A DNA stretch of 64,000 bases from Patescibacteria group bacterium (GTDB lineage Bacteria; Patescibacteriota; Patescibacteriia; Magasanikbacterales; GWA2-37-8): contig JBAZUP010000001.1 of the NCBI GenBank assembly GCA_041661385.1, forward strand, positions 418,560-482,559, in the 5' to 3' direction. Numbering within the stretch: position 1 is the stretch's first letter; each line of letters begins with the position of its first letter. The translations under genes and the position numbers were made by a program. A model generated the notes under the pieces. It did not search any database. It saw only the letters and a list, made by a program, of their open reading frames with translations, and was not told where the DNA came from. Below are positions 9,985-63,517 of the stretch, one piece after another.

Positions 9985-11468
9985 ATGGCGCGTTTTTTTA
10001 CCGAGACATTAAAACCCAAATAGCGGCCAAACATTAAGTGCGTGACAGCGTCAAGACAGGGCAAAGAAGAAAACAACACCAGTGATACCGGAGTAAGTGC
10101 CCACTGCAAAATCATAAACAAATATTGATACCGACGATGCTGTTCGGGGCGAGGCGGAAGAAGCAACATGCCGATAATCATGGAGACAAATAAACCCGCC
10201 ATAGCAAGTGTCATGAGAGTTTCGAGCACATGTGGAGTGTTAAAAAAAAGCGCGCTTTGCCGAACCTGATCTTCAGCCACCCAAAGCGGCAACCTGCCGA
10301 GCACAGTAATAATAATCGCGACCACTCCCCAGCTCCATTTGCCTTCCCACTCATGAAACAACATGACAAATTTTTTGAAGCGGCTTATTTCTTTATGTTT
10401 TTCAAATTCCCAAAGCAAATAAGAAATATTTTCAGTGCCCCAGGCCCAGCGCCGTTGTTGAAAATACAAATTTTTTAAACTTTTTAAAATACTTTCATCA
10501 CGCACTGTATCCATTGAAACCGGTAAATACAAAGGCGTTACTTCGTAATCTCCGCCATAGGCAAGCCAACATTGATAAAAAATACGCGAATCCTCACTGA
10601 TGATATTTTTGGCATGGCCGCCCGCATCAATTGCCGCCTTAAAACTCATGCTATGTGAAGAAAAAGTGACAAGGTTATCAAGGCGAGCCAGGCTGAACAA
10701 CATCCAAAAAGTGGTACCAAAAGCCATGATTCGGAGTATCGCCGGCGAATCCCAAAGATTGTTATTGTACAAAGTGATAGGCTGAAACGAGCTGTGAGTC
10801 GGATTCGGATGTGAAAGATACATGTAAGTCAGATGAGCAAAATATTCCGGATGCGCCACGGTATCAATATCAAAAACCGACATTATTATATTTTCATATT
10901 GCCAATTTTTTGCATCCGCGTATTTTTTAAATTCCCATTCCGCATAATGAATGTTTGATCCTTTCCCGGCGATTTCGCCGGGCAAATTATCGGGATGGGT
11001 AAAAAATATCAGGTCCGCAAATTTGCCGGAAAAATGTTTTTTTATTTCCGCTTGCACTCCCTGCCAGTGTTCCAGCTTGCGCGCCTCACCGGAAATAACT
11101 ATATATAATTTCTCGGCTGGATATGCAGATTTGAGCAGCGCTCCAAGCGTCGCTTCTACTACGTCAAAATCTTCATTATACAAAGGTAAAAAAACAACAT
11201 TGATTTTTTCACTCCAGGCCGGAAATTCTTTTTTTAATTTATCGAACCAACTTACTTTTATCGCCAAACGAAATCGGTTCCAAGATAGAACCGTATAAAA
11301 AGAAAAATAAGCGACTCGAAGCACCCAATAAACATCAAAAATTATTATCAGGTAAATCATCCAAAGCGGACGAACAAAACTGAGCACCAAACCAACAAAA
11401 AGCGTGAGCCAAATGCTAAGGCCGGGTAAAATTTCGTATAATCGATATTTATGAAATGGTGTTAGCAT
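9981..11468 (-). CDS. Processive family-2 glycosyltransferase (cellulose/chitin/hyaluronan-synthase-like, membrane-embedded)
   Basis: GT-A domain with DxD-like FDIDTV, an ED motif (ISEDSRIF) and QQRRWAWG (the QxxRW processivity motif). Multiple TM helices at both ends. Confidence 0.65.
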   Translation of the reverse strand: MLTPFHKYRLYEILPGLSIWLTLFVGLVLSFVRPLWMIYLIIIFDVYWVLRVAYFSFYTVLSWNRFRLAIKVSWFDKLKKEFPAWSEKINVVFLPLYNEDFDVVEATLGALLKSAYPAEKLYIVISGEARKLEHWQGVQAEIKKHFSGKFADLIFFTHPDNLPGEIAGKGSNIHYAEWEFKKYADAKNWQYENIIMSVFDIDTVAHPEYFAHLTYMYLSHPNPTHSSFQPITLYNNNLWDSPAILRIMAFGTTFWMLFSLARLDNLVTFSSHSMSFKAAIDAGGHAKNIISEDSRIFYQCWLAYGGDYEVTPLYLPVSMDTVRDESILKSLKNLYFQQRRWAWGTENISYLLWEFEKHKEISRFKKFVMLFHEWEGKWSWGVVAIIITVLGRLPLWVAEDQVRQSALFFNTPHVLETLMTLAMAGLFVSMIIGMLLLPPRPEQHRRYQYLFMILQWALTPVSLVLFSSLPCLDAVTHLMFGRYLGFNVSVKKRAI

Positions 11469-14905: not shown

Positions 14906-15280
14906 TTATTTCAAAGTGACTTTGCCGCCAGCTTCTTCAAGCTTTTTCTTCATGGCTTCAGCGTCATCTTTCTTTACGCCTTCTTTGATGGCTTTTGGAG
15001 CGGCATCAACGAGAGCTTTAGCATCAGCGAGACCAAGACCAGTAATTTCTTTTACAGCCTTAATAACGTTGATTTTGTTTGGACCTGCTTCGGTAAGTTC
15101 AACATTGAACTCGGATTTTTCTTCGGCAGCGGCTCCGGCAGCGGCTGGGGCAGCCATCATCATGGCTGGGGCGGCGGCGGAAACTCCAAACTTCTCTTCC
15201 ATCGCCTTAACAAGTTCGGCGAGTTCGAGTACTGTAAGTTTTTCAACTTCGGAAATGATTGTTTCTAATTTTGCACTCAT
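14906..15280 (-). CDS. rplL: 50S ribosomal protein L7/L12
   Basis: 124 aa. Ala-rich hinge and the conserved C-terminal domain ([24 protein letters not shown]). Confidence 0.9.
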
Positions 15281-16729: not shown

Positions 16730-17206
16730 TTATAAAGCTTTTTTCATTAAAATTGTTTCAAACTTTGGCCCATTATTTTTATGAATTATTAATTTTCTAA
16801 TTTTTTTATAACCAAAGTGCTTATAAAAAAGAACCGCAAAAAGCGAAGAATGTACCTGCAAATATTTCAGCTTCAATTTTTTCGCTTCTTTTTCAATGAA
16901 ATTTATCAGCTCTCTCCCAACACCCTTACCCTGATGGAGGGGGTCAACGAAAAACTGTCTTATACGATTTTCATTTTCAGTAAGACAAATAACGCCAACA
17001 ATTTTATTTCCTAAAACTGCTACTTTATAATTTCGTTCCTTAGATTTTTTCAAAATTTTTACAGCACTGGCCCCGGAACATAAAAACTTAATCACGGCCG
17101 GAGAATAATATTTTTTATTAGTAACTTGTATGGCCCGACGAATAATTCTGGCAACATCATACTCATCTCCCTTTTTAAATTTCCGAACCTTAATTTTTTT
17201 AGCCAT
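16730..17206 (-). CDS. GNAT family N-acetyltransferase
   Basis: QGKGVGRELI acetyl-CoA binding motif (Q/RxxGxG/A). 158 aa. Confidence 0.7.
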   Translation of the reverse strand: MAKKIKVRKFKKGDEYDVARIIRRAIQVTNKKYYSPAVIKFLCSGASAVKILKKSKERNYKVAVLGNKIVGVICLTENENRIRQFFVDPLHQGKGVGRELINFIEKEAKKLKLKYLQVHSSLFAVLFYKHFGYKKIRKLIIHKNNGPKFETILMKKAL

Positions 17207-22856: not shown

Positions 22857-24482
22857 TCATACTTGGTGAACCGGAATCCAAAAACCAAATTCACTCCCCT
22901 TGCCGAGACCCGGGCTGTGCGCCCAAACTCGGCCGTGATGCGATTCAATAAATTTGGCACAAACGAACAAACCCAAACCAGTTCCATTTACATTCACTCC
23001 TTTTACATTGTTTCCACGGTAAAATTTTTGGAAGAAATTTGCTTCATCGATCTTTTCAAAACCCAAACCTCCATCTTTAACTCTAATCGAAACCCCATCG
23101 CCTTCGCTAATCGCTTCAACTTTTATAACTCCTACATCACAATATTTAATTGCATTGTCTATAAAATTAAATACTACGTGACGAATCTTTTCTTCATCAA
23201 ATATTACTTTGGCCAACTCCGGCGCTCGGTTCCAAACCAAAGTTAAATTCTTTTGTTTGGCTTTAACATCCAGTTCCTTCACAGCGCTATCAATTACATC
23301 ATTTATATCATGCGGGGCAAAATCATATTTTGTCCTACCTTGTTCAAGACGAGTAATATCAAGGAAACTATCTACCAATTTAACTAAGTGACCGTTACTT
23401 TCGTCAATATTTTTATATACTTCAGCCGCTTCTTTGGTAACTCCGCCATAAGCGCCATCTTTCAAAAGCTCAATATAGCCATTGGTAATGGATAATGGGG
23501 TGCGAAGCTGATGCGCGGCAATGGATAAAAAGTCGGTTTTTTGACGGTCTAACTCTTTAAGCTGGATGTTAGCAGTCTGGAGCTGACTGGTAAGTGCCTG
23601 CAGACGCTCACGTTGTTCTACCTCTTTTCGGACGCTTCTTATCAATAATAGCCCCGAGCTTAAAATTAATAAAAATACAAAAAATTTATAAATTCTTATT
23701 ATTAATGTTTCTGCACTAACTACTTCAACTAATACTGGAAATGCTAAAATAAAAACCAAAACTTCCGTTGAAATAATTTTTATATCTAAAAGATGGTATT
23801 TGATAATAGCAAAGGAAGTGAGGAGAATAAATGGAAAATAAAAAACTGATCCATATACTATAAAGTGCGAATTTGAAAAAAGTGCTGGCAACAAAAAATT
23901 AAAGAATATCACTAAAATAAAGGTTATAATAGTTCCAATTAATACGAGAAACAACGCCACACGTTTGCGTTTTTCTTTGGTGGTAATTATTTTTCTTATA
24001 AAAACAATTATACTTGCCAACACAAAACCTGCAGAAAACAAACCAAATAATAAAATTGCCGGTCCGTTTTCAATTTTCGTTATAATACCGTTAGAAGAAA
24101 CTGCTATTGCTCTCTTAAAAACAGCGGGCGTTAAGGTAAGAAGGGAGACCACGACGGTAATTGGAAATAGTAATAATTTATACAATCGAGAAAATTCATA
24201 ATTTGTTTCAGGAAAAACTAAAAAAAACTGGAATAAAAAGTAGACTTGCCATAAAGCAAAAAATATTACAAGTCGCAATACCCACAAACCAATTTCCGGT
24301 ATAAAAACATGATAGCTTAGATAATTGAGCGCACCCCAGATGCTAACCATTATAATAAAAAAGAAAAACGATTTACTGGTAATACTTTTCCGATCGCTCA
24401 AAAAAACAATCGCACCTAAAAGAAGCGATACTAAGACCGTCAAACCTACAGATAACAAATCAAGATTACCTAATATATCCAT
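22857..24482 (-). CDS. Sensor histidine kinase with N-terminal 7TM (7TMR-DISM-like) sensor and C-terminal HisKA+HATPase_c
   Basis: About eight hydrophobic helices, a coiled-coil, H-box LSIAAHQLRTPL, N/G boxes (VFNFIDNAIKY; DGGLGF; GTGLGL). Confidence 0.8.
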   Translation of the reverse strand: MDILGNLDLLSVGLTVLVSLLLGAIVFLSDRKSITSKSFFFFIIMVSIWGALNYLSYHVFIPEIGLWVLRLVIFFALWQVYFLFQFFLVFPETNYEFSRLYKLLLFPITVVVSLLTLTPAVFKRAIAVSSNGIITKIENGPAILLFGLFSAGFVLASIIVFIRKIITTKEKRKRVALFLVLIGTIITFILVIFFNFLLPALFSNSHFIVYGSVFYFPFILLTSFAIIKYHLLDIKIISTEVLVFILAFPVLVEVVSAETLIIRIYKFFVFLLILSSGLLLIRSVRKEVEQRERLQALTSQLQTANIQLKELDRQKTDFLSIAAHQLRTPLSITNGYIELLKDGAYGGVTKEAAEVYKNIDESNGHLVKLVDSFLDITRLEQGRTKYDFAPHDINDVIDSAVKELDVKAKQKNLTLVWNRAPELAKVIFDEEKIRHVVFNFIDNAIKYCDVGVIKVEAISEGDGVSIRVKDGGLGFEKIDEANFFQKFYRGNNVKGVNVNGTGLGLFVCAKFIESHHGRVWAHSPGLGKGSEFGFWIPVHQV

Positions 24483-24488
24483 AATATA

Positions 24489-25559
24489 TTATATGGCTGA
24501 TTCATAAGAAACAGACGGCGCAAGCCGTGAAGACGTAGCGGAGGGCGGACTAGCTTTTCCAACTCTAAGAATAAACAACGTATTTTTTTTACCGGCATCG
24601 CATTGAAAACAAATATCTTGATATGAATCTTTAATCATCTGTTGCTGGCTTACACTAATTTCTTCCGTTGCTTGCCCTTTTACCCGTTGGTATAAAAATA
24701 ACACGCCAGTTATAGGATGTGCAGAAACACCTTCTGCAGTACAGGCAAGCCAGACTCGTTGTAACGACCTACCAAGGGCAATAAAATCCTCTGGAGTGTC
24801 TCTTTCGGACAAAAATGCAACAAATGACGGGCTGGCTTGAAATAATTTGGCATTATCCTCGGCAATTTTTTTGGTAATTCCCAATTTATTAATAATTTTC
24901 ATTATCGGCCAAAAACTGGCAATCCGAAAAGCTATTTCCTGAGGTTTGGGCATTTCTAATGTCTTCACATAGAGTCCACTCTTCTTTTGTTTTTCGTCTT
25001 CTTCCGACCAAATAATATGTTTAAAAAAGAAACTGTGAATTACTTTAGTAGTTAGAACCGTCATTTCATTAGTAACCGAAGCAAGGCTTATTTTTTTTAT
25101 TTTTTTCTCATCGTCTATAAATTTTACTTCAATTCCAAGCTCACTATTGGCACTTAAAATTCTATCTTTTGTTTCGGGAGGAATTGATTCATTCCTATAT
25201 GGAAGCCTGTTGGTCACCCGTTTATCGACATATTTTGCGAAAACATCAGCATTAACCCCAGGATTTGTGACAAAAGTAACAATAGCAATCAACTCATTAT
25301 GACTGCCTTTTGGAAAAAGTTTAATTTGACACTCGTAGCCATTCTCACTAGCTATAATGCAAATATTTTCAAGCAACGCCCCATGCGCAACATGAGAACC
25401 GCATTGCTTGTAATTGTAAAATGGTAAATCTTTTTCTGGGTAATTATAAACAAAAAGGTCATCATTGCTAACCGAAAAATGCCAAGGCTGCGAATTGTCC
25501 CCCGAGGGAGCATAAACAGCTTTTGCTAAAATTTTTTCAATTACCTCCCTACTAATCAT
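24489..25559 (-). CDS. Nitroreductase-superfamily flavoenzyme, two-lobed (SagB/McbC-like dehydrogenase candidate)
   Basis: N-terminal APSGDNSQPWHF (nitroreductase SxxNxQPW motif). 356 aa, about twice a canonical nitroreductase, with a second NTR-like half (SPSFVAFL...LACTAEGVSAHPI). Overlaps the ThiF-like gene by 4 nt. Confidence 0.6.
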   Translation of the reverse strand: MISREVIEKILAKAVYAPSGDNSQPWHFSVSNDDLFVYNYPEKDLPFYNYKQCGSHVAHGALLENICIIASENGYECQIKLFPKGSHNELIAIVTFVTNPGVNADVFAKYVDKRVTNRLPYRNESIPPETKDRILSANSELGIEVKFIDDEKKIKKISLASVTNEMTVLTTKVIHSFFFKHIIWSEEDEKQKKSGLYVKTLEMPKPQEIAFRIASFWPIMKIINKLGITKKIAEDNAKLFQASPSFVAFLSERDTPEDFIALGRSLQRVWLACTAEGVSAHPITGVLFLYQRVKGQATEEISVSQQQMIKDSYQDICFQCDAGKKNTLFILRVGKASPPSATSSRLAPSVSYESAI

Positions 25560-26698
25560 ATACCTATGATTTGAAGAAACTTTTTAGTGTCTTTTAACCG
25601 TCGATTTTTATTTTTAGCATAATCCGCATCCAAAACTGCCTCCAAATTTATTTCGTACCGACCAGATTTGTAATTTTTATAACCATTTACTATATTCCGT
25701 GCCAAAAAAGCCAATGCGGTACCACACAAGTTGGCGGCGGTTCCCAGCTGAGGCCAAGAATATAAAGTTTTACCGACTTCCAAAACTGACTGCTGCATGC
25801 GGGTCGTGGCTATTTCTGCGCCGGCAATCCTAGCGGCAATACGCGGCAACTCACGCGGATCGATCGTTTTTAAATCATTTGATGTAATATTCATAGCTTT
25901 ACCGTTAAAAAGCGCAAGATTTGGTTGCAGGTCATACCGCTCAATGTCGATAAAGATATTGTCACCGTTGTCGGTTGCCATAATTACTGGAATTTTTTTA
26001 ATCTTTGCAATCTCTCGAATTTTAAATTTATAAAAAGGATTGTCCATTTCTTCAATCAATAAGTCTGCTCCTTTTAAGAAACTTTCAATATTTTTTTCGC
26101 TGATACCCTCATCATACAATTCCAACTTAATATATGGGTTTAATTCATATAATTGACGGGCGACCAGATGAGACTTGTCTTCCCCGATATTTTGCACTCC
26201 GGTTCGGACGCGATTAAGATTTGAACCGGACAACACGTCTAAATCAGCAATTTTAAATCTACGAGCACCACCGTTCATGACAATCGTTGAAGCAGCGTGA
26301 CTTCCTACACTCAAGCCAGCCAAAGCAATGGTTGCCTCATAAAATGCCTTCTGCTCTTTCTTGGTTATAAGATTACAATTTCGGCCGGTACGCATTTCAA
26401 AAAAATCTACTTCTTCTAAAACATGAAAAACAACGCTTAGCCATGGGAAGAAAAACCAATTTCCGCATTGCGACAAATCAGTTTGGTTTTTTTTATAATC
26501 ACTCACGAATTTTTCAAAATCTTTTTTATATTCTTTAATAAATCTGAACTTCGGATTTCGCAATAAAAACAAATCCTCAAGCTGAGTCATATATTCGTCC
26601 TTTACAACCAGACCCGGATACTCTTTCTTTATCTCCACTAATTCCTTCTTAAGTGTCTTTTTGTCGAGCTGCCGAGGTTTAATAAAAATATTTTTCAT
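25556..26698 (-). CDS. ThiF/MoeB/E1-like (HesA/MccB/PaaA-type) adenylyltransferase-fold enzyme
   Basis: Rossmann-type nucleotide-binding region ALAGLSVGSHAASTIVMNGGARRFKIADLDVLSGSNLNRV (E1 GxGxxG...D.D...NL.RQ pattern). 380 aa with an N-terminal extension. Confidence 0.7.
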   Translation of the reverse strand: MKNIFIKPRQLDKKTLKKELVEIKKEYPGLVVKDEYMTQLEDLFLLRNPKFRFIKEYKKDFEKFVSDYKKNQTDLSQCGNWFFFPWLSVVFHVLEEVDFFEMRTGRNCNLITKKEQKAFYEATIALAGLSVGSHAASTIVMNGGARRFKIADLDVLSGSNLNRVRTGVQNIGEDKSHLVARQLYELNPYIKLELYDEGISEKNIESFLKGADLLIEEMDNPFYKFKIREIAKIKKIPVIMATDNGDNIFIDIERYDLQPNLALFNGKAMNITSNDLKTIDPRELPRIAARIAGAEIATTRMQQSVLEVGKTLYSWPQLGTAANLCGTALAFLARNIVNGYKNYKSGRYEINLEAVLDADYAKNKNRRLKDTKKFLQIIGI

Positions 26699-26705
26699 AT
26701 ATTAA

Positions 26706-28256
26706 TTATGTCTTTTTTACCCATCGTTGTTTTGTGGCGGCGGCAAAATACGCAGTGTCCCCCTTCAGTCGCAAGTCCAGCTCCGGATGCGCTTTCATCT
26801 TGATGGTTTGGAAAAGGTGGTTATATTCAGAATTCTTTTTTCTAAGCGTCTCAATGATAATTTTTTGAATAAATCCTTCCATTGCTTTGTCGGGCTTGAT
26901 ATTTGTCTGTAATTCAATATGAATTAATAAACGTTGCTGTTGATCTTTTTTTAAATTTACAGTTTCCATTACAAATTTACCCGTACACAATTTACTTAAT
27001 TCCTTTGTTTCTAGTGCCATTTTTATATTTTCAGGATAAATATTCAAACCGTATAGTGTAACAGTAAAATCGGAACGGCCATATAAATACACAAAGGGTA
27101 AATGCCACATGAGTTGTCCGCCAACTAACTCACGTACTTTTTTAATATCATAACCGCCTGCTTTGAGTAATTCAATCATTTTTTCATAACTCAAAATATT
27201 TCCCCGGTCATGAATATTATACTTCAACAGCGGTATTTCTGTATTAAAAGAAGAAAAAATTAGTTCGTCATTTTCAATCTGAATATATTTAAAGAATGGA
27301 TAATACTGATTAAGTGACGGCGCATAACCTTCGCCAAATATTTTTTTACAAAGTTCCGCATTGTTTCCTACAGCTTTTCTTAATAAAATACTAAGCGGTA
27401 CCTCATGCCCCATCAGCGCTGCGTCAGCGGTACCATAAAGATTTACCGACGAGGTATAATAATTTGATTTTTTAATGCCAACTTTTTCATAAATATACGA
27501 TCTGAGGGTCTCACTTAATGATTCAGAAGCAAAAACAAACTTAATAACCTTGCTTTTCCAGTCTATTCCCCGCCTCTCCCCTTCATCCACGATATCTCTA
27601 ACAAAAGGCGGATATCCGCCTATTATTATTTGTTCAAACTCGCCGCCCATTTTTTCAACTATTCTTAAAATTTCTTCCTGGTTAATTCCTGGGGTAATAA
27701 TGGTTAGCGGCAAACCCTTTTGTGCTAAACGCATGCAACAATTTAGTGTAAAGGTGCCACCGATATAAATACCCATCGAAAAACCATTTATAAATAATGT
27801 TTTTCTTTTATTCGCACCAAGTATGTGTTTAATGAAAAACTCATAAAGATACGATGTTTCAGCTTCAACATTAAATGACCTCGGCCAGAAAAATGGTTGC
27901 CCTGATGAGCCTGAACTCGCCGAAATAATCGGCGCTTTCATTTTTCCGTCCCAGCAAAGATCAGATAATTTGTACTTTTTTAAATAATTTTCTTTATCTA
28001 CCCAGGGAACATGTTTAAGATCATCGATTTTTTTTATTTTATGATGATTTATTTTATTCTTCTTTAAGAAATCACGATATGCCGGAACCCTTTCCGCCAT
28101 TTGGTGAAATTGTTTTAAGGCCTTTTCAGCTCCGATTTTTTCATACATCGCCGGGTTATTTTCGGCAAAACCCTCAACTAAAAAATCTGAGTTCGTACTA
28201 AAAAAATCATTTAGACTTAAGCTACTATCGGAAAATAATTTTTTCTGATTAACCAT
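26706..28256 (-). CDS. PaaK / coenzyme F390 synthetase / CapK-like adenylate-forming enzyme
   Basis: ISASSGSSGQPFFWPRS corresponds to the PaaK-family SSGTTG P-loop. 516 aa with an overall ANL-like two-domain layout. Confidence 0.65.
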   Translation of the reverse strand: MVNQKKLFSDSSLSLNDFFSTNSDFLVEGFAENNPAMYEKIGAEKALKQFHQMAERVPAYRDFLKKNKINHHKIKKIDDLKHVPWVDKENYLKKYKLSDLCWDGKMKAPIISASSGSSGQPFFWPRSFNVEAETSYLYEFFIKHILGANKRKTLFINGFSMGIYIGGTFTLNCCMRLAQKGLPLTIITPGINQEEILRIVEKMGGEFEQIIIGGYPPFVRDIVDEGERRGIDWKSKVIKFVFASESLSETLRSYIYEKVGIKKSNYYTSSVNLYGTADAALMGHEVPLSILLRKAVGNNAELCKKIFGEGYAPSLNQYYPFFKYIQIENDELIFSSFNTEIPLLKYNIHDRGNILSYEKMIELLKAGGYDIKKVRELVGGQLMWHLPFVYLYGRSDFTVTLYGLNIYPENIKMALETKELSKLCTGKFVMETVNLKKDQQQRLLIHIELQTNIKPDKAMEGFIQKIIIETLRKKNSEYNHLFQTIKMKAHPELDLRLKGDTAYFAAATKQRWVKKT

Positions 28257-28264
28257 AAAATAAT

Positions 28265-29077
28265 TTACTTTGTGGCAACAGTAATTAACTGTGGCGAATT
28301 ATCATTATACGGACTTCCGTCCCAATCCCCGTAACATGCAACCTCCTTAAAACCAACTCCTTTGCATAAATCTGTAAATTCTTTATCAGTATATAACCTT
28401 ACTGAATATGGTGTAAGTTCTTCTCTTTTACCGTCTTTTGTTATAAGAGTCCATTCACCGTCTTCTCTTTTTGTGGTCGTATTATAGCGGCGTTTTAGCT
28501 CTAATTCTTTACCGGATAAAAGTTTTCGAACCTGAAAATTCAATAGTTCACCACTAACTAACCGCGGTACGGTTACATGCGTATGCATCAAAAATTTACC
28601 ACCCGGCTTCAGAGCCTCAAAAAATTTTCTGGCAACTTCTTCGTTTTCCTTGTCCGAATCAAAAAAACCAAATGAATAAAACATATTAATCACGGCATCG
28701 AATTCATTTCTGAATTTCAGGTGTCGCATGTCATTTTTTATGAAACGACAATTCTCAATCTTTTTCTCAGATCTTTTATCTTCATCTAATTTTAAAAATC
28801 TTTCATTAATATCTGCACCGGTAACATTAAAACCTGCCTCTGCAAGTGCTAGCGAGTGTCTACCGTAACCACAGGGACAATCTAAAATTTTTGCACCCTT
28901 ATTTAACCCACATAATTTTGCCACACCGGAAATTTCATGGGTGGTCCTTAGCTGCAGGTTCAATGGTGAATTAAGATGTCCTTCGACGGAATCATCAGCT
29001 TCCTTATACAAATCTCCAAAAAAACCTCCATCGCTTTCCCACCACTCTGTTTGTTCTGTTTGCATAACTTGACCCAT
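28265..29077 (-). CDS. Class I SAM-dependent methyltransferase
   Basis: ILDCPCGYGRHSLALAEAGFNVTGADI (motif I), FDAVINMF (motif II) and LKPGGKFLM (motif III). Confidence 0.7.
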   Translation of the reverse strand: MGQVMQTEQTEWWESDGGFFGDLYKEADDSVEGHLNSPLNLQLRTTHEISGVAKLCGLNKGAKILDCPCGYGRHSLALAEAGFNVTGADINERFLKLDEDKRSEKKIENCRFIKNDMRHLKFRNEFDAVINMFYSFGFFDSDKENEEVARKFFEALKPGGKFLMHTHVTVPRLVSGELLNFQVRKLLSGKELELKRRYNTTTKREDGEWTLITKDGKREELTPYSVRLYTDKEFTDLCKGVGFKEVACYGDWDGSPYNDNSPQLITVATK

Positions 29078-29128
29078 ATATCTCTTTTTATTAATAAATA
29101 TTTTTAAAAATTATAAACTAAACAAGAT

Positions 29129-30214
29129 TTATTTACTGGTGACTTTTTCATATTCGACATTTCTGTTTAAAAAAGCATTAGCAATAATAAGAGCTTCTTT
29201 TTCAAGTGTACTTCCCGAACTTTTACTTTTTTTCAAAATTAGATCTAGACTTTTGGGAATTTTTTTAAGATCATTCAAAATCCTTTCTTCGTTTGGATTT
29301 TCATTTATATACTGATCTACCACACTCACGATACCACCCGAATTGGCCAAATAGTCCGGAACATACAAAATACCCAATTGATTTAATTTTTCTGCGATTT
29401 CCGGACTTGCTAATTGGTTATTTGCTGACCCGACCACTGCTCGACATTTTAATTCACTAACAGATTTTTCATTTAAAACACCACTAAGTGCCGAAGGGGA
29501 AAAAATATCAACTTCTTGTTTGTGAATCTCCTCTGCCCCAACCACCTTAAGAAATGGAAACTCGGCTAAAATTTTCTTTATTTTTACATCATCAATATCG
29601 GAAATAATTATATTTTTTACATTACTCTTTATTAAAAGCCTTAGTAATTCAGAACCTGTTTTACCAATTCCTTGAATTGCAAAACTGCGTTCCTTTACCT
29701 CACTTGTTCCAAATATTGATGATAATACCGACTCAATACAATATTTAACACCGATTGCCGTGTAGTAACCCGAGTTTACACCCATTCCAATAATAAATTG
29801 ACTTGCTTTACGTAAAATATCTAAATCATCATTACTCACACCTACATCCGTACCAGTGACAAATTTACCATTTAATTCATTTACCTGTTTGGCGTATGTG
29901 GTAAAGAATTTGTTCCGGTCTTTAATTCCGTCTTTTGGTAATACCAGAGCGGCCTTCGCACCGCCGAAGGGCATGCCGGCCAAGGCTGATTTATATGACA
30001 TTAATTTTGACAAACGCAACGCATCGCGCAAGGCTTCTTCATCGGTAGCGTATCTCCACAACCGGGTTGCACCAAGTGAAGGAAAACCATTATTGAGACG
30101 GTGGATTGCAATATATCCCTTCAAGCCAACGGACTCATCTTCAACTAAATAGACACCATAGTTCTCGTCGTACTCTTCAAATTTTTCCAAATACGATTTA
30201 TCTAAAATTTTCAT
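29129..30214 (-). CDS. Glu/Leu/Phe/Val dehydrogenase family amino-acid dehydrogenase (leucine-dehydrogenase-like)
   Basis: PFGGAKAALVL (catalytic Lys region) and a C-terminal NAD Rossmann fold (GIGKTGSEL...). 361 aa. Confidence 0.75.
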   Translation of the reverse strand: MKILDKSYLEKFEEYDENYGVYLVEDESVGLKGYIAIHRLNNGFPSLGATRLWRYATDEEALRDALRLSKLMSYKSALAGMPFGGAKAALVLPKDGIKDRNKFFTTYAKQVNELNGKFVTGTDVGVSNDDLDILRKASQFIIGMGVNSGYYTAIGVKYCIESVLSSIFGTSEVKERSFAIQGIGKTGSELLRLLIKSNVKNIIISDIDDVKIKKILAEFPFLKVVGAEEIHKQEVDIFSPSALSGVLNEKSVSELKCRAVVGSANNQLASPEIAEKLNQLGILYVPDYLANSGGIVSVVDQYINENPNEERILNDLKKIPKSLDLILKKSKSSGSTLEKEALIIANAFLNRNVEYEKVTSK

Positions 30215-30217
30215 ACT

Positions 30218-31927
30218 TTACATTTCTTCGACAGTTTCAATAGTTAAAATTGCTAACATGTTTTTCAAAACCTGGCGCACCGCCTGAGAAAGAACCAAGC
30301 GCGCCGAAGATAATTCTTTTGATTCCGCGCCGACAACTTTGTGCTTATTATAGAAGTTATTATAGGCCTGCGCAAGTTCAAAGACATAGCGCGCGATGGC
30401 TGAAGGATTATAATTTTCCAGTGCTTTTTCAATCACGGTCTCAACCTCCCCCATCATCAAAACCAAAGCCTTTTCTTCGGGGGCAACCAAAGCGCCAAAT
30501 TCCTTTCCGGCGGATATTTTTTCTTTTTTAGCTTTCGCTTCCAAACTATTGATACGGGCGATGGTATATAAAATATACGGCCCGCTAAAACCTTCAAACG
30601 AAGTTGCTTCTTTTAGATCAAAAACTGTATTCTTTACCGCTTCATGTTTTTGCATATCGAATTTCAGCGCTGCCTGAGTTAATATATTTGATGTCGCAAT
30701 GATTTTTTTCTTGGCCCAATCGGCATGGCGCTGTTTTGTTTCTTCAACTATTAGATCAAAAATTTGATCTCGTAAACTTTCATATAAAATCACATTGCCG
30801 CTACGTGAGGACATTTTGCCCTCCGGCAAATTTACGAGCCCATAGCTGAGGTGGGTTAACTTTTGCTTAAACCCAATCAATTCCAAGATTTTATAAAGTT
30901 GTTTGAAATAAAACTTTTGCTCTTCACCGGTGATAACAATACTCTCGTCTACCGGATATTTACTAAATTTTTGTTCGGCCAAAGGAATATCACTGGTTAA
31001 ATAAAGACCGACGCCGTTTGATTTGCGTAAAAGCGCTATATCCAAATTATATTCCGACAAATCCACGATAATCGCACCGCCCTCACCAACTTTCGCTATT
31101 CCTTTTTTTAAAAGCTCATCTACTCTAGCCTGTCCCATTGCTTTAATATCTTTTTCATAAAAAACCGCCATGTGCTTTACCCCGAGCTCTTCAAATAATT
31201 CATCAAACTTGTCGATACTCCATTTTCTGGTCTTGATAAACAGCGGCCAGATTTTTTTATCATTTGCTTCCAATTGTTTTTGTATTTCTTGAACTTCAAC
31301 TTCGCATTCCTGATGATCTTTTAAATAATGGCTCGCTTCGGCGTAAATTTCGCCCAGCCATTTCTGCTTATTGGCAGGGGCTTTTTCATCACCGTGAAAT
31401 TTTTTGAGTCCCCAAAGACATTTGGCGACATGCGAACCAAAATCATTTAAATAATTCACCGGATAAACCTTAACACCAGTTTTTTCATATAACTTAACCA
31501 ATGTATTGCCGATACAGACATTCCGAAAATGACCAATATGAAACTCTTTGTGAGTATTATTGGATGGGTACTCGATCATCACTTTTTTACCTTTGCCAAT
31601 TTCGGTTGAACCAAAATCATCGGTATTTTTTATTACTGATTTGATAACAAAGTTTGCAACCTGTGAAGAATTTAAGAAAAAATTTACATAAGGACCAAAG
31701 GCGGCAACTTTTTCAACTGTTGAATCAGGTTTTAATACACTGGAAATTTTGCTTGCGAGTTCAGTTGCTACCTCGTTTGGTTTTTTACCGGCTACTTTGG
31801 CAATATTAAAACAAGCAAACGCTACGTCACCCATTTCTGGTTTTGGCGGTACTGAAAAAGCCGCAGGATTATCCACCCCGGCTTGTTTTAACAGCTTCTC
31901 AATTTCCTCCTGAATCCCTCGTAGCAT
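30218..31927 (-). CDS. argS: Arginine--tRNA ligase
   Basis: Class I HIGH motif (FHIGHFRN). ArgRS N-terminal Add-1 and C-terminal DALR anticodon-binding regions. 569 aa. Confidence 0.9.
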   Translation of the reverse strand: MLRGIQEEIEKLLKQAGVDNPAAFSVPPKPEMGDVAFACFNIAKVAGKKPNEVATELASKISSVLKPDSTVEKVAAFGPYVNFFLNSSQVANFVIKSVIKNTDDFGSTEIGKGKKVMIEYPSNNTHKEFHIGHFRNVCIGNTLVKLYEKTGVKVYPVNYLNDFGSHVAKCLWGLKKFHGDEKAPANKQKWLGEIYAEASHYLKDHQECEVEVQEIQKQLEANDKKIWPLFIKTRKWSIDKFDELFEELGVKHMAVFYEKDIKAMGQARVDELLKKGIAKVGEGGAIIVDLSEYNLDIALLRKSNGVGLYLTSDIPLAEQKFSKYPVDESIVITGEEQKFYFKQLYKILELIGFKQKLTHLSYGLVNLPEGKMSSRSGNVILYESLRDQIFDLIVEETKQRHADWAKKKIIATSNILTQAALKFDMQKHEAVKNTVFDLKEATSFEGFSGPYILYTIARINSLEAKAKKEKISAGKEFGALVAPEEKALVLMMGEVETVIEKALENYNPSAIARYVFELAQAYNNFYNKHKVVGAESKELSSARLVLSQAVRQVLKNMLAILTIETVEEM

Positions 31928-31975
31928 AGCTTAAAATGTATCTAAATTATAACATTTTCACTGGGGATTGTCACT

Positions 31976-32010: not shown

Positions 32011-32232
32011 GGCAATACCCCCTACCAAAAGAAGTCAGCACGGCCGGAATAAGGTTGTGCCCATTAGATCGTTGAGGATACTCACCCCCCGCAGGGCAGC
32101 TTTGATTGCCCTATCTTCACCTCCTATTTGGGACCCAATCAACCTAATTCATTTCATGAAAGCCGACTTCTCCTTGGTAGGGGGCAGTCTAACTATAAAC
32201 CCCCACGACTAATAATCGTGGGGGATTTTTTT
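32011..32232 (+). ncRNA. Candidate ~220-nt structured sRNA (family not identified; 6S-like closing-stem architecture)
   Basis: Begins just after the promoter. A long-range helix pairs ccccctaccaaaagaagtc (32017-32035) with gacttctccttggtaggggg (32164-32183), enclosing internal hairpins. Ends in terminator aaacccccacgactaataatcgtgggggattttttt (32197-32232). No ORF. Both flanking genes are on the opposite strand. Confidence 0.35.
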
Positions 32233-32263
32233 ATAAAAAATTAAAAAAAATGGGAAAAAAATA

Positions 32264-32295
32264 ACCCGGACGATTGTCCGGATTCTTTTTCCTTC
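32264..32295 (-). terminator. tyrS terminator
   Basis: Minus-strand hairpin ccggacaatcgtccgg followed by a U-run. Confidence 0.5.
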
Positions 32296-34491: not shown

Positions 34492-37224
34492 TTAATTTAA
34501 AGATTTTAATTGTGCTTCAAATTTTAACAATTTATCTTTTACTTCCAGTAACTTAGCTTTTTCTTTTTCTACTACGACCGCAGGCGCGCGGGAAACAAAA
34601 TCAGCGTTGCTAAGCTTCGCTTCAAGGCCGGTGATATATTTTGTAACCGAATCAATTTCATCTTTCAAGCGCTTTGTTTCTTTCCCCTTATCAACCACAC
34701 CTTCAAAATCAACCGCAATCTCCATACCACCGGCCAAAAAGACTTTTTTACCATTATGATTTTCCATTTTTTCAGTTATGACTAGTTTTTCTAAACGCGC
34801 TAATTTCTCAATGATTCCGGCATTTTCAATGACCAATTTCTGATTTTTTTCCGGAACAATGACTGCCGATAGTAATTTAACAGCATCAATTTTATTTTCA
34901 CTGCGCCAAGACCGGATCGCGGTAACAACATTTTTTATTATTTCAAATTGAACCGCAGAATCAAATTTTTTCCTGCCAACTTTTGGCCATTTTTCAACCA
35001 TTAACAGCGCGTCACTTTCATATACTTCTTCCCAAATAGTTTCGGTAACAAATGGCATGAACGGATGCCAAAGTTTTAAAACAGTATTCAATAAATAATT
35101 TAAAACTAAAGACTTGCCGCCTTCAATTTTCGCAATTTCCAAATACCAATCGGCGAGCTCGCCCCAAGTAAAGTCACGCAAAATTTCACCGGCCATTGAA
35201 TAATTATAATTTTCAATTTGCGCCGTAACATCTTTGATTACATTTTGCATTTTTTCTAGAATCCAGGCATCGGCATCTGTTTTTGGCGCCGGCATCTTGA
35301 TGTCCTCGGACGGTTTTTCAATATTAATTAGCATGAAGCGAGAAATATTCCAAAGCTTGTTGGTAAAATTTCTGAAACCGGCAATTTTTTCTTCGGACAA
35401 CTTGAGATCAATACCTGGCGTACTGCCCAGCACCAAAGAAAGTCGGGTCGCATCGGTACCAAACTTCTCAATCATATCAAGCGGGTTGATTACATTTCCG
35501 AGACTTTTACTCATTTTTCTGCCTTGCTCATCACGCACTAAACCATGCAAATAAACCGTCTCAAATGGAATACAACCAAGCGTATAGGTAGTCATGAGAA
35601 TCATTCTCGCCACCCAGAAAAACAAAATATCATGACCGGTTTCCAAAACAGAAGTCGGATGAAAATTTTCTAAATCCCCATTTTCATCTGGCCAGCCTAA
35701 AGTTGAAAAAGTCCAAAGCCCGGAAGAAAACCAAGTATCGAGCGTATCTTTATCTTGCACCCAACCCTCGCCTTCCGGCGCATTTATTCCACAATATATT
35801 TCTTCTTTGCGATACCAAACCGGCACCTGATGACCATACCAAATTTGCCGGCTGATGTTCCAGGGTCGTAAATTATCAATCCAATGGAAATATGTTTTTT
35901 CGAATTGATTCGGGATAATCGTGATCTGTTTACTATTAACCACCTTTTGCATCAATTCTTTTAAAGTTACAGATGCTCCAGATTTTACACCTTTAATTTT
36001 TGATTCCTTTAGCTTAAACTTTTTATTTACATCAATAAACCATTGTAATTTTGGCAATGGTTCTACAATGTCGTTAAATCGATCGGAAGTACCAATATTT
36101 TGAATAATATCTTCTTCTTTTTCGAGCAATTTATGAACGCGGAGATTTTCTAAAATAACGGCCCGAGCTTTCTCAACTTCTAAATCGGAATAGGCCCCGG
36201 CCCGATGAGTCATTTTTCCATCTTCACCGATAACTTGAATCAAATCAATCGGGTTGCCGGCGGCTTTTTGTTTTTCATACATGGCAAAGTCAACGGCGCT
36301 GTGAGCCGGCGTTACGCCAAGCGCGCCAGTACCATAATTCATGTCGATACCGTCGTCGGCAATAATTTTTACCTTAATTTTTTCTCCGACAAATTCCAAA
36401 TCATAGGTTTTTCCAATAAATTGTTTGTAGCGCTTATCATCGGGGTGAACTGCAACCGCGGTATCGCCAAGCTTAGTTTCGGGCCGAGTGGTCGCAATCG
36501 TAATTGGAAAATCCTTAGAATATTTAAAATAATATAATTTTCCCGGGCGTTCGACATAAACCAATTCATCGTCGCTACAGGTAGATTGCCCTTTTACCGA
36601 CCAATTTATAACTCTAAACCCCCGGTAAATAAGCCCATCATCAAACATTTTTTTAAATACCGCTCGGACGGCGCGATTTCGCTGATCATCTAAAGTAAAG
36701 GCTTCTCGGCTCCAATCTAAACTCGCGCCCATTTTTTTACATTGATTTACAATTGTATCATGCGACTCTTTGGCAAATTTTCTCACTTCATTAAGAAATG
36801 CTTCTCTTCCCATTTCTTGTTTCGGTTTTGCCATTTTCTTTTCTTTAATCAAAATGCTTTCAACTTTTGATTCCGTAGCTATCGCGGCATGATCGGTTCC
36901 GGGTATCCAAAGCGTGCGATCACCCTTCATGCGATGATAGCGCACCATAATATCTTCAATCGCGAGCATGGCAGCATGACCCATGTGCAGGGTTCCGGTA
37001 ACATTTGGCGGAGGTAAGACAATTGAAAAATATGACGCATCTTTTTCGGTTACGCCAGCCTTAACACAAACATCCGGATTAAAAAAACCGCTTTCTTCCC
37101 AGCGTTTCCCGATTTTTTCTTCGTAATTCTTGGCTTCAAAAGCCTTTGGCAGATCCTTCATATTACTCTTTATATATACCGGTCTAATAGGTAATAGTGT
37201 ACTGAAAAATGGCCAAAATGGCAA
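34492..37224 (-). CDS. valS: Valine--tRNA ligase
   Basis: HIGH (TLHMGHA), KMSKS (KMSKSLGN), an editing domain and a C-terminal coiled-coil. 910 aa. Confidence 0.9.
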   Translation of the reverse strand: MPFWPFFSTLLPIRPVYIKSNMKDLPKAFEAKNYEEKIGKRWEESGFFNPDVCVKAGVTEKDASYFSIVLPPPNVTGTLHMGHAAMLAIEDIMVRYHRMKGDRTLWIPGTDHAAIATESKVESILIKEKKMAKPKQEMGREAFLNEVRKFAKESHDTIVNQCKKMGASLDWSREAFTLDDQRNRAVRAVFKKMFDDGLIYRGFRVINWSVKGQSTCSDDELVYVERPGKLYYFKYSKDFPITIATTRPETKLGDTAVAVHPDDKRYKQFIGKTYDLEFVGEKIKVKIIADDGIDMNYGTGALGVTPAHSAVDFAMYEKQKAAGNPIDLIQVIGEDGKMTHRAGAYSDLEVEKARAVILENLRVHKLLEKEEDIIQNIGTSDRFNDIVEPLPKLQWFIDVNKKFKLKESKIKGVKSGASVTLKELMQKVVNSKQITIIPNQFEKTYFHWIDNLRPWNISRQIWYGHQVPVWYRKEEIYCGINAPEGEGWVQDKDTLDTWFSSGLWTFSTLGWPDENGDLENFHPTSVLETGHDILFFWVARMILMTTYTLGCIPFETVYLHGLVRDEQGRKMSKSLGNVINPLDMIEKFGTDATRLSLVLGSTPGIDLKLSEEKIAGFRNFTNKLWNISRFMLINIEKPSEDIKMPAPKTDADAWILEKMQNVIKDVTAQIENYNYSMAGEILRDFTWGELADWYLEIAKIEGGKSLVLNYLLNTVLKLWHPFMPFVTETIWEEVYESDALLMVEKWPKVGRKKFDSAVQFEIIKNVVTAIRSWRSENKIDAVKLLSAVIVPEKNQKLVIENAGIIEKLARLEKLVITEKMENHNGKKVFLAGGMEIAVDFEGVVDKGKETKRLKDEIDSVTKYITGLEAKLSNADFVSRAPAVVVEKEKAKLLEVKDKLLKFEAQLKSLN

Positions 37225-38621: not shown

Positions 38622-40208
38622 CTAAATTAGCGGTACGCCCGTCATTTCTGGTGGTTGTTCAATATCTAGTAATTTTAATACTGTTGGAGCGATATCAGCA
38701 AGCACACCAACCGGCGCGAGCAAGCTTAAATCTCCTTCTGGCGGATCTCCGCCCGGACCAGCTTGACCCCTAAAATCATCGCCGATAATAACACATGGTA
38801 CCGGATTTACCGAATGCTCCTTATCCATTTCAGTAGTTTGTAAATTTAATAATTCTTCGGCATTGCCATGATCAGCGGTAAAAATAACGACCCCTTCATG
38901 AGCGAGAGTGTGTTTTACTACTTCGCCTAACCCAATATCGGCCGCTTCGCACGCCGCGATGGTTGCCGGAAGATTGCCAGTATGACCAACCATATCGGCG
39001 TTCGCAAAATTTATTACCACAAAATCATAATTGCCGCTGTCGATTGCTTTAATCGCTTCTTTTGTTACTCCGGGTGCGGACATTTCCGGCAACTCCGCGT
39101 AGCTGCCAATTCTCGGCGAAGGAACTAAAACTCGATCTTCACCAGGAAATTGCTCTTCAACCGTACCGTTTAGAAAAAATGTAACGTGGCCATATTTTTC
39201 GGTTTCCGCGATATGTATCTGTTTTAAATTATTTTTACTTATTACTTCGGCAAGACAATTGTGAACAACAATAGGTTCATAAGCAACCACGACCGGAATA
39301 TTTTTTTCATATTCCATCATGGTTACAAAAAATAAATTCTCGATTCGATCTCTTTCAAAACCGGTAAAAGCCGGCAACACAAAAGCTTTGGTAAGTTCAC
39401 GCGCCCGATCCGGCCGAAAATTAAAAAATATCGCGGCATCGTTTTTTTCAATTGAACCAACTGGGGCGCCTTTCATATCGGTAATCACCGTCGGAACAAA
39501 TTCTTCATCGTAAACTTTTTCATTATAAGAATCCATTACTGCCTGTTCGGGGTCAGCCGATTTCTTTTCCGACTGGCCGAGCGCCATGGCGTGATAAGCT
39601 CTTTCTACACGCTGCCAGCGGTTGTCGCGATCGAGCGCGTAAAACCGGCCCGAAATAGTCGCGATTTGCCCCACTTGCAAGGTGGCCAATTTTTGCCTTA
39701 GATCTTTTATTAAACTCACTCCAAGATTAAAACCACAATCGCGACCGTCCAAAATGGCGTGCACATAAACTTGCTTATTTAATCCGTTACGTTTGCATAG
39801 TTCAAGCAAGGCATAAAGATGATCCATGCTAGAGTGAACATTTCCCGAGCTAAGCATGCCAATAAGATGCAAAGAAGAATGATTTGTTTTCGCATGTTCA
39901 ATCGCCCGAAGGAAGGCCTGATTTTCAAAAAAACTTCCATCAGCAATAGATTGGTTGATACGCGGACAAGATTGATAATAGACGCGGCCAGCGCCAATAT
40001 TCAAGTGGCCGACTTCAGAATTGCCGATTTCTCCAAACAAAAGACCCACTTCATTTCCGGAAGCGTAAAGTGTCATTGCCGGATAATTTTTGAGGTATTC
40101 CGAAAAATTCGGGGTCTTGGCCTTGGTAATAGCATTTCCTTCGCTCGGTGGAGCTACTCCCCAACCGTCAAAAATTGTCAGCACTACCGGCCGGTAATGT
40201 TTCGCCAT
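38622..40208 (-). CDS. gpmI: 2,3-bisphosphoglycerate-independent phosphoglycerate mutase (copy 1)
   Basis: TIFDGWG and GNSEVGHLNIGAGR (catalytic Ser) near the N-terminus. C-terminal metal-binding DHGN. 528 aa. Confidence 0.85.
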   Translation of the reverse strand: MAKHYRPVVLTIFDGWGVAPPSEGNAITKAKTPNFSEYLKNYPAMTLYASGNEVGLLFGEIGNSEVGHLNIGAGRVYYQSCPRINQSIADGSFFENQAFLRAIEHAKTNHSSLHLIGMLSSGNVHSSMDHLYALLELCKRNGLNKQVYVHAILDGRDCGFNLGVSLIKDLRQKLATLQVGQIATISGRFYALDRDNRWQRVERAYHAMALGQSEKKSADPEQAVMDSYNEKVYDEEFVPTVITDMKGAPVGSIEKNDAAIFFNFRPDRARELTKAFVLPAFTGFERDRIENLFFVTMMEYEKNIPVVVAYEPIVVHNCLAEVISKNNLKQIHIAETEKYGHVTFFLNGTVEEQFPGEDRVLVPSPRIGSYAELPEMSAPGVTKEAIKAIDSGNYDFVVINFANADMVGHTGNLPATIAACEAADIGLGEVVKHTLAHEGVVIFTADHGNAEELLNLQTTEMDKEHSVNPVPCVIIGDDFRGQAGPGGDPPEGDLSLLAPVGVLADIAPTVLKLLDIEQPPEMTGVPLI

Positions 40209-54403: not shown

Positions 54404-54646
54404 TTAGCTTCTTGTTTGTATATAGGTTGCTATTAAAGTAAGCACAATGATGAACACTCCAATAAACATTATTATCCATTTGGTAATCCTGTCTTTATCC
54501 GAGCTGTCCAACCCACCCACGGAACCAGCGCCAAATGGGCCGAACCACCACGCTACTTTTTTAGCTACCTTAATTACACTTTCAAGCTGCGATGCGAAAA
54601 TGATTAAAACACCTAGTGCAAGGACTGAAAGATTTATAAGCTTCAT
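54404..54646 (-). CDS. Small two-TM membrane protein (80 aa), candidate immunity protein
   Basis: Overlaps the stop of the orphan RHS-CT ORF by 4 nt (translational coupling). Hydrophobic. Confidence 0.4.
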   Translation of the reverse strand: MKLINLSVLALGVLIIFASQLESVIKVAKKVAWWFGPFGAGSVGGLDSSDKDRITKWIIMFIGVFIIVLTLIATYIQTRS

Positions 54647-63398: not shown

Positions 63399-63492
63399 AT
63401 ATTTAATAAATTTTCTTGTTCTAGATGAACAAATAACTGACCATAATATATACCCTTTTAAAACAACCTTGCAACTTAGGCTGTGGATAACA

Positions 63493-63517
63493 AAAAACCG
63501 CCCCAAAAGGCGGTTTT
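63493..63517 (-). terminator. Terminator of the upstream 145-aa gene
   Basis: Minus-strand hairpin aaccgcc-tttt-ggggcggtt followed by a U-run. Confidence 0.55.

Follow-up and report, generated by a model that had tools for sequence, protein, structure and literature searches.

We investigated a 64,000-nucleotide stretch of the genome of a Patescibacteria group bacterium (contig JBAZUP010000001.1; hereafter the window), in which a ThiF-like protein and a nitroreductase-superfamily protein are encoded by overlapping genes. We interpret this pair, at the level of the family and with a probability of about 85%, as a homologue of the split form of the oxazolone synthetases that join a ThiF-like cyclase to a flavin-dependent oxidase (ThiF-FDO), an enzyme class discovered only in 2021. 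The type of enzyme pair is already known from OxzB, TrzS and TyzBC; what appears to be new here is its setting in a Patescibacteria-wide, ligase-dependent operon that is coupled to a seven-transmembrane (7-TM) sensor histidine kinase.

The ThiF-like protein (ThiF; 25556-26698 (-), 380 aa) is a putative ATP-dependent cyclase similar to TyzB, and equates to the N-terminal half of TrzS and OxzB. The nitroreductase (NTR; 24489-25559 (-), 356 aa), a single-chain tandem nitroreductase and putative FDO, is similar to TyzC and equates to the C-terminal half of TrzS and OxzB. The two open reading frames (ORFs) are exactly those given in an earlier note on this DNA, with the ThiF stop and the NTR start sharing an ATGA in a 4-nt overlap. 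The two proteins match two successive halves of a single NCBIfam model, the PRK07877 Rv1355c family, with ThiF scoring 280 bits over model positions 22-348 of 722, and NTR 172 bits over positions 373-713. Fused ThiF-NTR relatives, found in two further loci (L029, 733 aa; L032, 731 aa), cover positions 25-712 of this model with 450 and 442 bits, respectively. Neither the split pair nor the fused relatives reach the Rv1355c equivalog cutoff of 476 bits, and from these scores the pair is best read as a sister clade. Three features of ThiF-FDO enzymes were present, namely an intact ATP/adenylation site, an Acg-like tandem nitroreductase in a single chain, and domains that are either adjacent or fused; two features of the characterised systems, an equivalog-level score (narrowly missed) and an adjacent N-acyltransferase, were not.

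For ThiF, we identified a PF00899 domain in Pfam (69 bits) and found the ATP/adenylation residues (G128xSVGS133, D152/D154, N160/N162/R163, K175 and D219) to be at least 95% conserved among 69 orthologues. From its position in the motif, D219 is presumed to be the ThiF/MoeB-type adenylation-motif Asp, equivalent to the D217 mutated in TrzS(Msmeg). Among solved structures, the one nearest to ThiF in sequence is TcdA (4YED, 34 bits), a tRNA-modifying ThiF-like enzyme that cyclodehydrates t6A, and the alignment covers the ATP-binding region of TcdA.

For NTR, we identified the PF00881 Nitroreductase domain in two stretches (Pfam, 51.5 bits), and conserved APSGDNSQPW and RxTNRxPY motifs. Its best NCBIfam match is PRK14851, a model of a ThiF-NTR fusion of ~680 aa (199 bits), and it also matches the Acg family (144 bits). 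The earlier note had called this protein double-lobed and similar to SagB and McbC. The two lobes in one chain were confirmed by the AlphaFold2 model (predicted local distance difference test, pLDDT, 92.9), which superposes as one chain on its top Foldseek match, MsAcg (2YMV; E 3e-14, TM-scores 0.70/0.76). Sixty-three matches reached E<=0.001, and among the 50 listed 2YMV is the sole full-length one, the other 49 being nitroreductases of ~160-250 residues with partial coverage, save for one weak match of 487 residues; ordinary 200-aa nitroreductases cover half of the model (query TM-score ~0.35). The similarity to SagB, in contrast, was not recovered, as the SagB-type model TIGR03605 gave no match to NTR even at E<=10. 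A profile of the NTR clade retrieved 2,469 representative proteins (50%-identity clusters, E<=1e-30), which include FDOs from outside the Patescibacteria, so that this number is an upper bound for the clade. We additionally noted a 1593-aa, high-GC and apparently non-patescibacterial protein (P0273), in which two repeats that look by eye like glycosyltransferases precede an FDO nitroreductase, a different and seemingly unexplored context for the FDO family.

The earlier note had taken the pair for the C (E1-like) and B (SagB/McbC-type dehydrogenase) components of a synthetase for thiazole/oxazole-modified microcins (TOMMs) or linear azol(in)e-containing peptides (LAPs), in which adenylation by a PaaK-like enzyme would stand in for YcaO. 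The domain pair, a ThiF-like protein overlapping an NTR-superfamily protein that uses flavin mononucleotide (FMN), beside an ATP-using enzyme, is superficially the same, and the McbBCD and SagBCD systems also encode a ThiF-like protein together with an NTR-superfamily FMN oxidase and yield an oxidised five-membered O/N heterocycle. Such systems, however, need YcaO, a ribosomal precursor, a SagB-type dehydrogenase and a catalytically silent E1-like partner that binds the peptide. Of these features we sought YcaO, the signature of the SagB type, a gene for a precursor peptide and degeneration of the ATP site, and found none. As the earlier note had said, YcaO (PF02624) has no match in the window, according to Pfam scans that covered most ORFs of at least 120 aa (the exceptions being the valyl-tRNA synthetase at 34492-37224, a 124-aa ORF at 14906-15280 and a short ORF at the window edge), and there is no conserved extra family in the related loci. 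No structure of McbC, a cyanobactin oxidase or another TOMM dehydrogenase is among the 50 listed Foldseek matches of NTR, and the N-terminal 100 aa of ThiF align with the TrzS-family model and not with any TOMM model. The ThiF-like partner of LAP/TOMM cyclodehydratases serves in peptide binding only, with no catalysis (PMC12596934), whereas the ATP site of ThiF is fully conserved. We could not find a precursor gene for a ribosomally synthesised and post-translationally modified peptide (RiPP) within the operon, and most loci have no room for one, with gaps of -4 to 51 nt in the window and medians of less than 10 nt across loci. With either protein, the TrzS family gives far higher scores. Thus the TOMM reading, which we consider extremely unlikely, fails in every defining feature that could be tested, and the pair is read as a split ThiF-FDO oxazolone-synthetase homologue.

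We similarly weighed an E1-like sulfur-carrier system, following the tradition of the names "MoeY" and "MoeW", in which ThiF would adenylate the Gly-Gly of a ThiS, MoaD or ubiquitin-like protein for sulfur transfer or tagging, and NTR would be a redox accessory. ThiF does show weak matches to ThiF, MoeB, SAMP-E1 and TcdA models (30-73 bits), but these lie far under the cutoffs of 152-647 bits (for example 73 against 152, and 59 against 275), and there is no conserved Cys in the 69 ThiF orthologues. We found no plausible ORF ending in GG in the window, the sole candidate of 40-130 aa lying inside another reading frame, and no small conserved partner in the operon. TyzB, which was earlier mis-annotated as MoeW, proved to be a cyclase (PMC10404671), and we hold a sulfur-carrier function to be most improbable here.

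The characterised oxazolone synthetases differ from the pair mainly in their partners. In Mycobacterium tuberculosis, the N-acyl tyrazolone pathway (TyzB, TyzC and TyzA; Rv2338c, Rv2337c and Rv2336) likewise places a separate ThiF-type cyclase beside a single-chain FDO of ~340-370 aa in one operon, TyzB and TyzC being the split counterpart of TrzS (PMC10404671), and both have the same predicted folds as the pair in the window (ThiF/MoeB-like, and Acg-like with one flavin site). N-acylation in the Tyz system falls to TyzA, an acyl-CoA:amino-acid N-acyltransferase with a fold like that of acyl-homoserine lactone synthases. The gene for such an enzyme is absent here, where the conserved partners are instead a PaaK-family ligase, a deaminating enzyme and the 7-TM histidine kinase. 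Rv1355c itself is TrzS (formerly "MoeY"), a fusion of a ThiF cyclase and a flavin oxidase that was shown by experiment to make N-acyl tryptazolone from N-acyl-tryptophan, through an ATP-dependent cyclisation and then an O2-dependent desaturation (PMC12856293). The TrzS family is the best-scoring curated family over both halves of the pair, and the TrzS authors likewise name 2YMV, the top structural match of NTR, as the nearest solved homologue for the FDO domain of TrzS (PMC12856293). TrzS is nevertheless fused where the pair is split, comes from another phylum and has other operon partners, and we found here no homologue of its pathway partner TrzA. OxzB of Pseudoalteromonas rubra, the founding oxazolone synthetase (bioRxiv 10.1101/2020.06.11.147165), likewise applies an ATP-dependent ThiF-nitroreductase logic to a small molecule; it differs in being a fusion, with the N-acyltransferase OxzA, and was reported from ~56 proteobacterial proteins with no ligase or kinase partner. 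A 2025 review names OxzB as the sole ThiF-like enzyme validated in non-RiPP natural-product biosynthesis, and the sole one with a small molecule for its substrate (PMC12596934).

We investigated the distribution of the operon by scanning one genome per species, which yielded 372 loci with NTR relatives, and examined the best 80. These 80 are nearly all from Patescibacteria, including Magasanik-, Doudna-, Kaiser-, Wolfe-, Lipton-, Nealson-, Niyogi-, Giovannoni- and Nomurabacteria, Paceibacterota and Minisyncoccia; the related patescibacterial loci total ~125. Among loci with enough flanking sequence, ThiF and the NTR gene are no more than 6 kb apart in 54 of 55, a PaaK-like ligase (PaaKL) accompanies the pair in 53 of 55, and a deaminating enzyme does so in 40 of 55. 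The set is kept across at least eight distinct gene orders, with tight spacing throughout. With HK for the histidine kinase and ELFV for an ELFV-type amino-acid dehydrogenase, the commonest order is ELFV-PaaKL-ThiF-NTR-HK (16 loci), followed by ThiF-ELFV-PaaKL-NTR-HK and PaaKL-ThiF-NTR-HK (8 loci each), lyase-ThiF-PaaKL-NTR-HK (7 loci) and aminotransferase-PaaKL-ThiF-NTR-HK (6 loci), with other orders in the remaining loci. In one locus (L037) PaaKL and ThiF are fused into a single 889-aa protein. The operon of deaminating enzyme, PaaKL, ThiF, NTR and HK is conserved across the Patescibacteria. We came across no account of this operon in the literature that could be searched on Patescibacteria or the Candidate Phyla Radiation (CPR) in connection with ThiF, nitroreductases, phenylacetate-CoA ligases or biosynthetic clusters, and the papers on characterised oxazolone systems contain no mention of a ligase, a histidine kinase or Patescibacteria.

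Seven loci (L042, L043, L061, L062, L063, L069 and L070) are labelled as Gammaproteobacteria, Planctomycetota, Myxococcales or Polyangiaceae, one of them on a contig of 716 kb. Several carry flanks of the patescibacterial type seen in the window, with an arginyl-tRNA synthetase (ArgRS) gene upstream and/or bactofilin and diacylglycerol kinase genes downstream, and these loci are probably mislabelled or misbinned Patescibacteria. The three closest relatives of the window operon, with NTR proteins 62-66% identical, contain a conserved ORF of ~80-110 aa between NTR and HK (L083:6624-6962, L129:3507-3806 and L130:5164-5499), with the core motif PLPPLYDL-AWREAEKWKR...SPSPFHA-W-FYRIWR. The window and all other loci lack this ORF.

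As the earlier note had recorded, the gene adjoining the pair (26706-28256 (-), 516 aa) is PaaK-like, and the fold of its product is that of PaaK-family adenylate-forming ligases. PaaKL has no match in Pfam, and in NCBIfam it scores 55.8 bits on PaaK (TIGR02155), against a cutoff of 646 and over the N-terminal half only. Its AlphaFold2 model (pLDDT 89.5) has PaaK1, PaaK2 and BT_0428 as top Foldseek matches (E ~1e-21), with 2-hydroxyisobutyryl-CoA ligase (HCL), NatL2 and ClxA as further structural neighbours. Thus PaaKL shows the PaaK fold and the adenylation motifs, with SSGSSG, YGxAD, D350 and a C-terminal K509 invariant, and falls short of the PaaK equivalog score. It exceeds PaaK-family ligases in length by ~80 aa, and carries N-terminal helices, an insertion and additional helices at the C-terminus. 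A GH3-like amido synthetase was also considered for PaaKL and rejected, the fold being of the PaaK type.

The earlier note had proposed that the PaaK-like enzyme takes part in a non-canonical arrangement by supplying ATP-dependent activation of the YcaO type. The partnership is supported by the presence of PaaKL in nearly all loci and its fusion to ThiF, but the likely role is another one, ATP-dependent ring closure being assigned to ThiF, as in TrzS, TyzB and OxzB. Between ArgRS and the kinase we could not find an N-acyltransferase of the OxzA, TyzA or TrzA type, and none is conserved in the related loci; the sole acetyltransferase is a generic 158-aa GNAT protein (16730-17206), ~7 kb from the operon and not conserved with it. 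Most plausibly, PaaKL replaces this missing N-acyltransferase step. Precedents exist in benzoxazole pathways, where NatL2 is a PaaK-family ligase that condenses without CoA (PMC7204872) and ClxA is described as a CoA-independent PaaK-family amide ligase (PMC12519233). There, these enzymes are described as joining aryl-acyl adenylates to O or N nucleophiles directly, upstream of heterocycle formation.

Two loci without PaaKL, and only these, encode a conserved protein of 326 aa between ThiF and NTR (L010:2924-3904 and L021:7005-7985), with no sequence match in Pfam or the PDB. Because its size is close to that of TyzA (322 aa), this protein may be the N-acylating enzyme of these loci, in which case PaaKL and an acyltransferase would be interchangeable.

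In the window, the deaminating enzyme is represented by an ELFV-type (Leu/Phe/Trp-type) amino-acid dehydrogenase (29129-30214 (-), 361 aa; PF00208/PF02812). It scores 234 bits on the NCBIfam model of the Trp dehydrogenase ScyB (cutoff 600), and in PDB sequence searches matches leucine dehydrogenase (3VPX, 206 bits), tryptophan dehydrogenase (5B37, 184 bits) and phenylalanine dehydrogenase (119 bits). ELFV dehydrogenases occur in 32 of 81 loci. Elsewhere the slot is taken by an aromatic amino-acid ammonia-lyase (PF00221, 509 bits), whose best NCBIfam match is the flexirubin tyrosine ammonia-lyase FlxA (562 bits, under its cutoff), or by a class I/II aminotransferase (PF00155), with never more than one of the three types per locus.

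The window additionally encodes a class I S-adenosylmethionine (SAM) methyltransferase (28265-29077 (-), 270 aa; PF13847/PF13649), whose nearest named relatives are amine N-methyltransferases (the daptide methyltransferase, 59 bits; CypM, 7WZG). No homologues were found in the 80 genome loci searched and none was called in L083 and L130, where the interval is covered; the enzyme is predicted to be a lineage-specific tailoring accessory. Other lineages have methyltransferase-like or alpha/beta-hydrolase-like accessories, either as separate genes between NTR and HK (clusters c21 and c24, ~12 loci) or fused to NTR (P0241, P0293, P0323 and P0244, with GGMSGG in the hydrolase-like and FGSGxMExERQ in the methyltransferase-like domain), which suggests that the product is recurrently tailored or ring-opened.

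Taken together, these predicted activities incline us towards a pathway of deamination, adenylation and N-acylation, ring closure and desaturation, a logic that we consider somewhat more probable than its alternatives combined. The deaminating enzyme would act on a hydrophobic or aromatic amino acid and yield a 2-oxo acid or, in loci with a lyase of the tyrosine/histidine type, an aryl-acrylate. An N-acyl amino acid would then arise through PaaKL, which would form the acyl-AMP and pass the acyl group, directly or via CoA, to an amino acid's amino group. ThiF would use ATP to adenylate the carboxylate of this N-acyl amino acid, the amide oxygen closing an oxazol-5(4H)-one ring, and the FDO would desaturate the C-alpha/C-beta bond with FMN and O2, after or before ring closure. 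In this lineage only, the SAM methyltransferase would tailor the product, and the kinase, predicted to be co-transcribed, may sense or regulate it. The substrates, the order of the steps and the oxazolone product are what we infer from gene content and characterised homologues. Oxazolones are labile in acid and methanol (PMC12856293).

Several points weigh against this interpretation. The scores lie just under the Rv1355c equivalog cutoff, so that identical chemistry is not guaranteed, and without an OxzA/TyzA/TrzA-type acyltransferase an N-acyl amino acid substrate is an assumption. PaaKL may instead make a CoA thioester or act on something else. About a quarter of the loci show no deaminating enzyme in the flank examined, the dehydrogenase could run in the aminating direction, and 2-oxo acids and acrylates are chemically different donors, so that a common logic for the three deaminating enzymes is an inference.

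The same enzymes might have another product or target: either another heterocycle, or an azlactone intermediate that acylates a cell-envelope component, a protein or a tRNA. Azlactones are, from general chemistry, reactive acyl donors, the hydrolase-like and methyltransferase-like fusions to NTR point to further processing, and the closest solved relative of ThiF is a tRNA-modifying cyclodehydratase. The likeness to TcdA is, however, weak (34 bits, against 280 bits to the TrzS family), and small N-acyl oxazolones are what every characterised ThiF-FDO system releases, so that we regard this alternative as doubtful, if far from negligible. We find it considerably harder to accept a kinase-regulated catabolism or salvage of aromatic or branched-chain amino acids, in which PaaKL would perform CoA ligation, the FDO would desaturate the acyl chain, and ThiF would be unrelated or regulatory. 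PaaK and 2-hydroxyisobutyryl-CoA ligase, both structural relatives of PaaKL, are indeed catabolic, and amino-acid dehydrogenases, like ammonia-lyases, classically stand at the start of catabolism. Such a pathway would nonetheless leave unexplained why ThiF is obligatory, in some cases fused, and intact in its adenylation site, and no beta-oxidation or ring-cleavage genes are conserved downstream in the ~125 loci. Patescibacteria are not known for catabolism of this kind.

Finally, for the 7-TM sensor histidine kinase (22857-24482 (-), 541 aa; PF16927 HisKA_7TM, PF00512 HisKA and PF02518 HATPase_c), we identified a linkage to the enzymes that holds in both directions. HK lies directly downstream of NTR in 66 of 67 NTR-anchored loci with enough flanking sequence. 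When metagenome contigs were searched with the 7-TM region of the kinase alone (an alignment of four sequences), NTR was immediately upstream in 38 of the 40 matches with at least 1.4 kb of upstream sequence, and ThiF and PaaKL were present in all 24 with at least 5.5 kb. Thus, as the linkage holds both ways, the family to which this sensor kinase belongs is dedicated to these enzymes, and its members probably sense or control the product. We could not find a receiver-domain (response regulator) gene in the window; a CheY-like single-domain receiver is encoded near the operon in 16 genome loci.

An autoinducer synthase encoded beside a multi-pass membrane sensor kinase, as in CqsA-CqsS and LuxM-LuxN, is the textbook layout of a signal and its receptor. 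The operon may be likened to these systems in that small-molecule biosynthesis genes adjoin a multi-pass membrane histidine kinase; it differs from them in that there is no homology, binding of the product by the kinase is putative, and the window has no receiver gene. The operon might be a self-contained chemical signalling module, widespread in Patescibacteria, in which the deaminating enzyme, PaaKL, ThiF and the FDO would produce an azlactone (oxazolone-type) autoinducer derived from amino acids, to be perceived by the 7-TM kinase as its receptor. The near-obligate two-way linkage of the kinase is what such a model predicts, and N-acyl oxazolones have been likened to acyl-homoserine lactones by Kleetz et al.; we nevertheless put this forward only tentatively, as an unlikely but attractive option.

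In the window, the genes are preceded by ArgRS (30218-31927 (-), 569 aa), and the run from ArgRS through the dehydrogenase, methyltransferase, PaaKL, ThiF and NTR to HK is spaced by 3, 51, 8, 7, -4 and 6 nt, respectively. A consensus scan identified a promoter-like site upstream of ArgRS (31946-31974 (-); GTGACA-17-TATAAT with TG, 11/12 matches), which is a possible start of a transcription unit that runs through the operon, and strong terminator-like hairpins lie just upstream of this site (32200-32284). The G+C content is 0.35-0.37 across the operon region (24001-30000), compared with ~0.40-0.43 in most of the window.

We additionally noted other genes of the window. A 2486-aa ORF (56046-63506 (-)) combines SpvB, FG-GAP, RHS-repeat, CBM_4_9 and Ig-like domains with an SLT lytic-transglycosylase domain at its C-terminus; it resembles a surface or secreted protein of the Rhs/Tc type with a peptidoglycan-cleaving tip, for which a role in host-cell attack or attachment is plausible. 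Tandem paralogues of cofactor-independent phosphoglycerate mutase (38622-40208 (-) and 40291-41853 (-); iPGM_N and Metalloenzyme domains) lie beside enolase and phosphoglycerate kinase genes, a duplication that is unusual for a streamlined genome. Three further ORFs, of 977 aa (49400-52333 (-)), 495 aa (9981-11468 (-)) and 346 aa (54643-55683 (-)), have no Pfam match at E<=0.001.

The same enzyme pair that characterises the known oxazolone synthetases thus forms a large and deeply conserved clade in the Patescibacteria/CPR, organisms with minimal metabolism. Recognising it would correct a likely annotation trap, in which the genes appear as "MoeB/ThiF + nitroreductase + phenylacetate-CoA ligase". 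A PaaK-family ligase fed by a deaminating enzyme, in place of an acyl-CoA N-acyltransferase, implies that the acyl donors, and probably the azlactone structures too, are new. The coupling to a kinase provides a testable handle on what these molecules may be for, namely signalling. If the signal and receptor reading were true, it would reveal a quorum-sensing-like or host-sensing circuit in bacteria that are thought to be nearly devoid of secondary metabolism.

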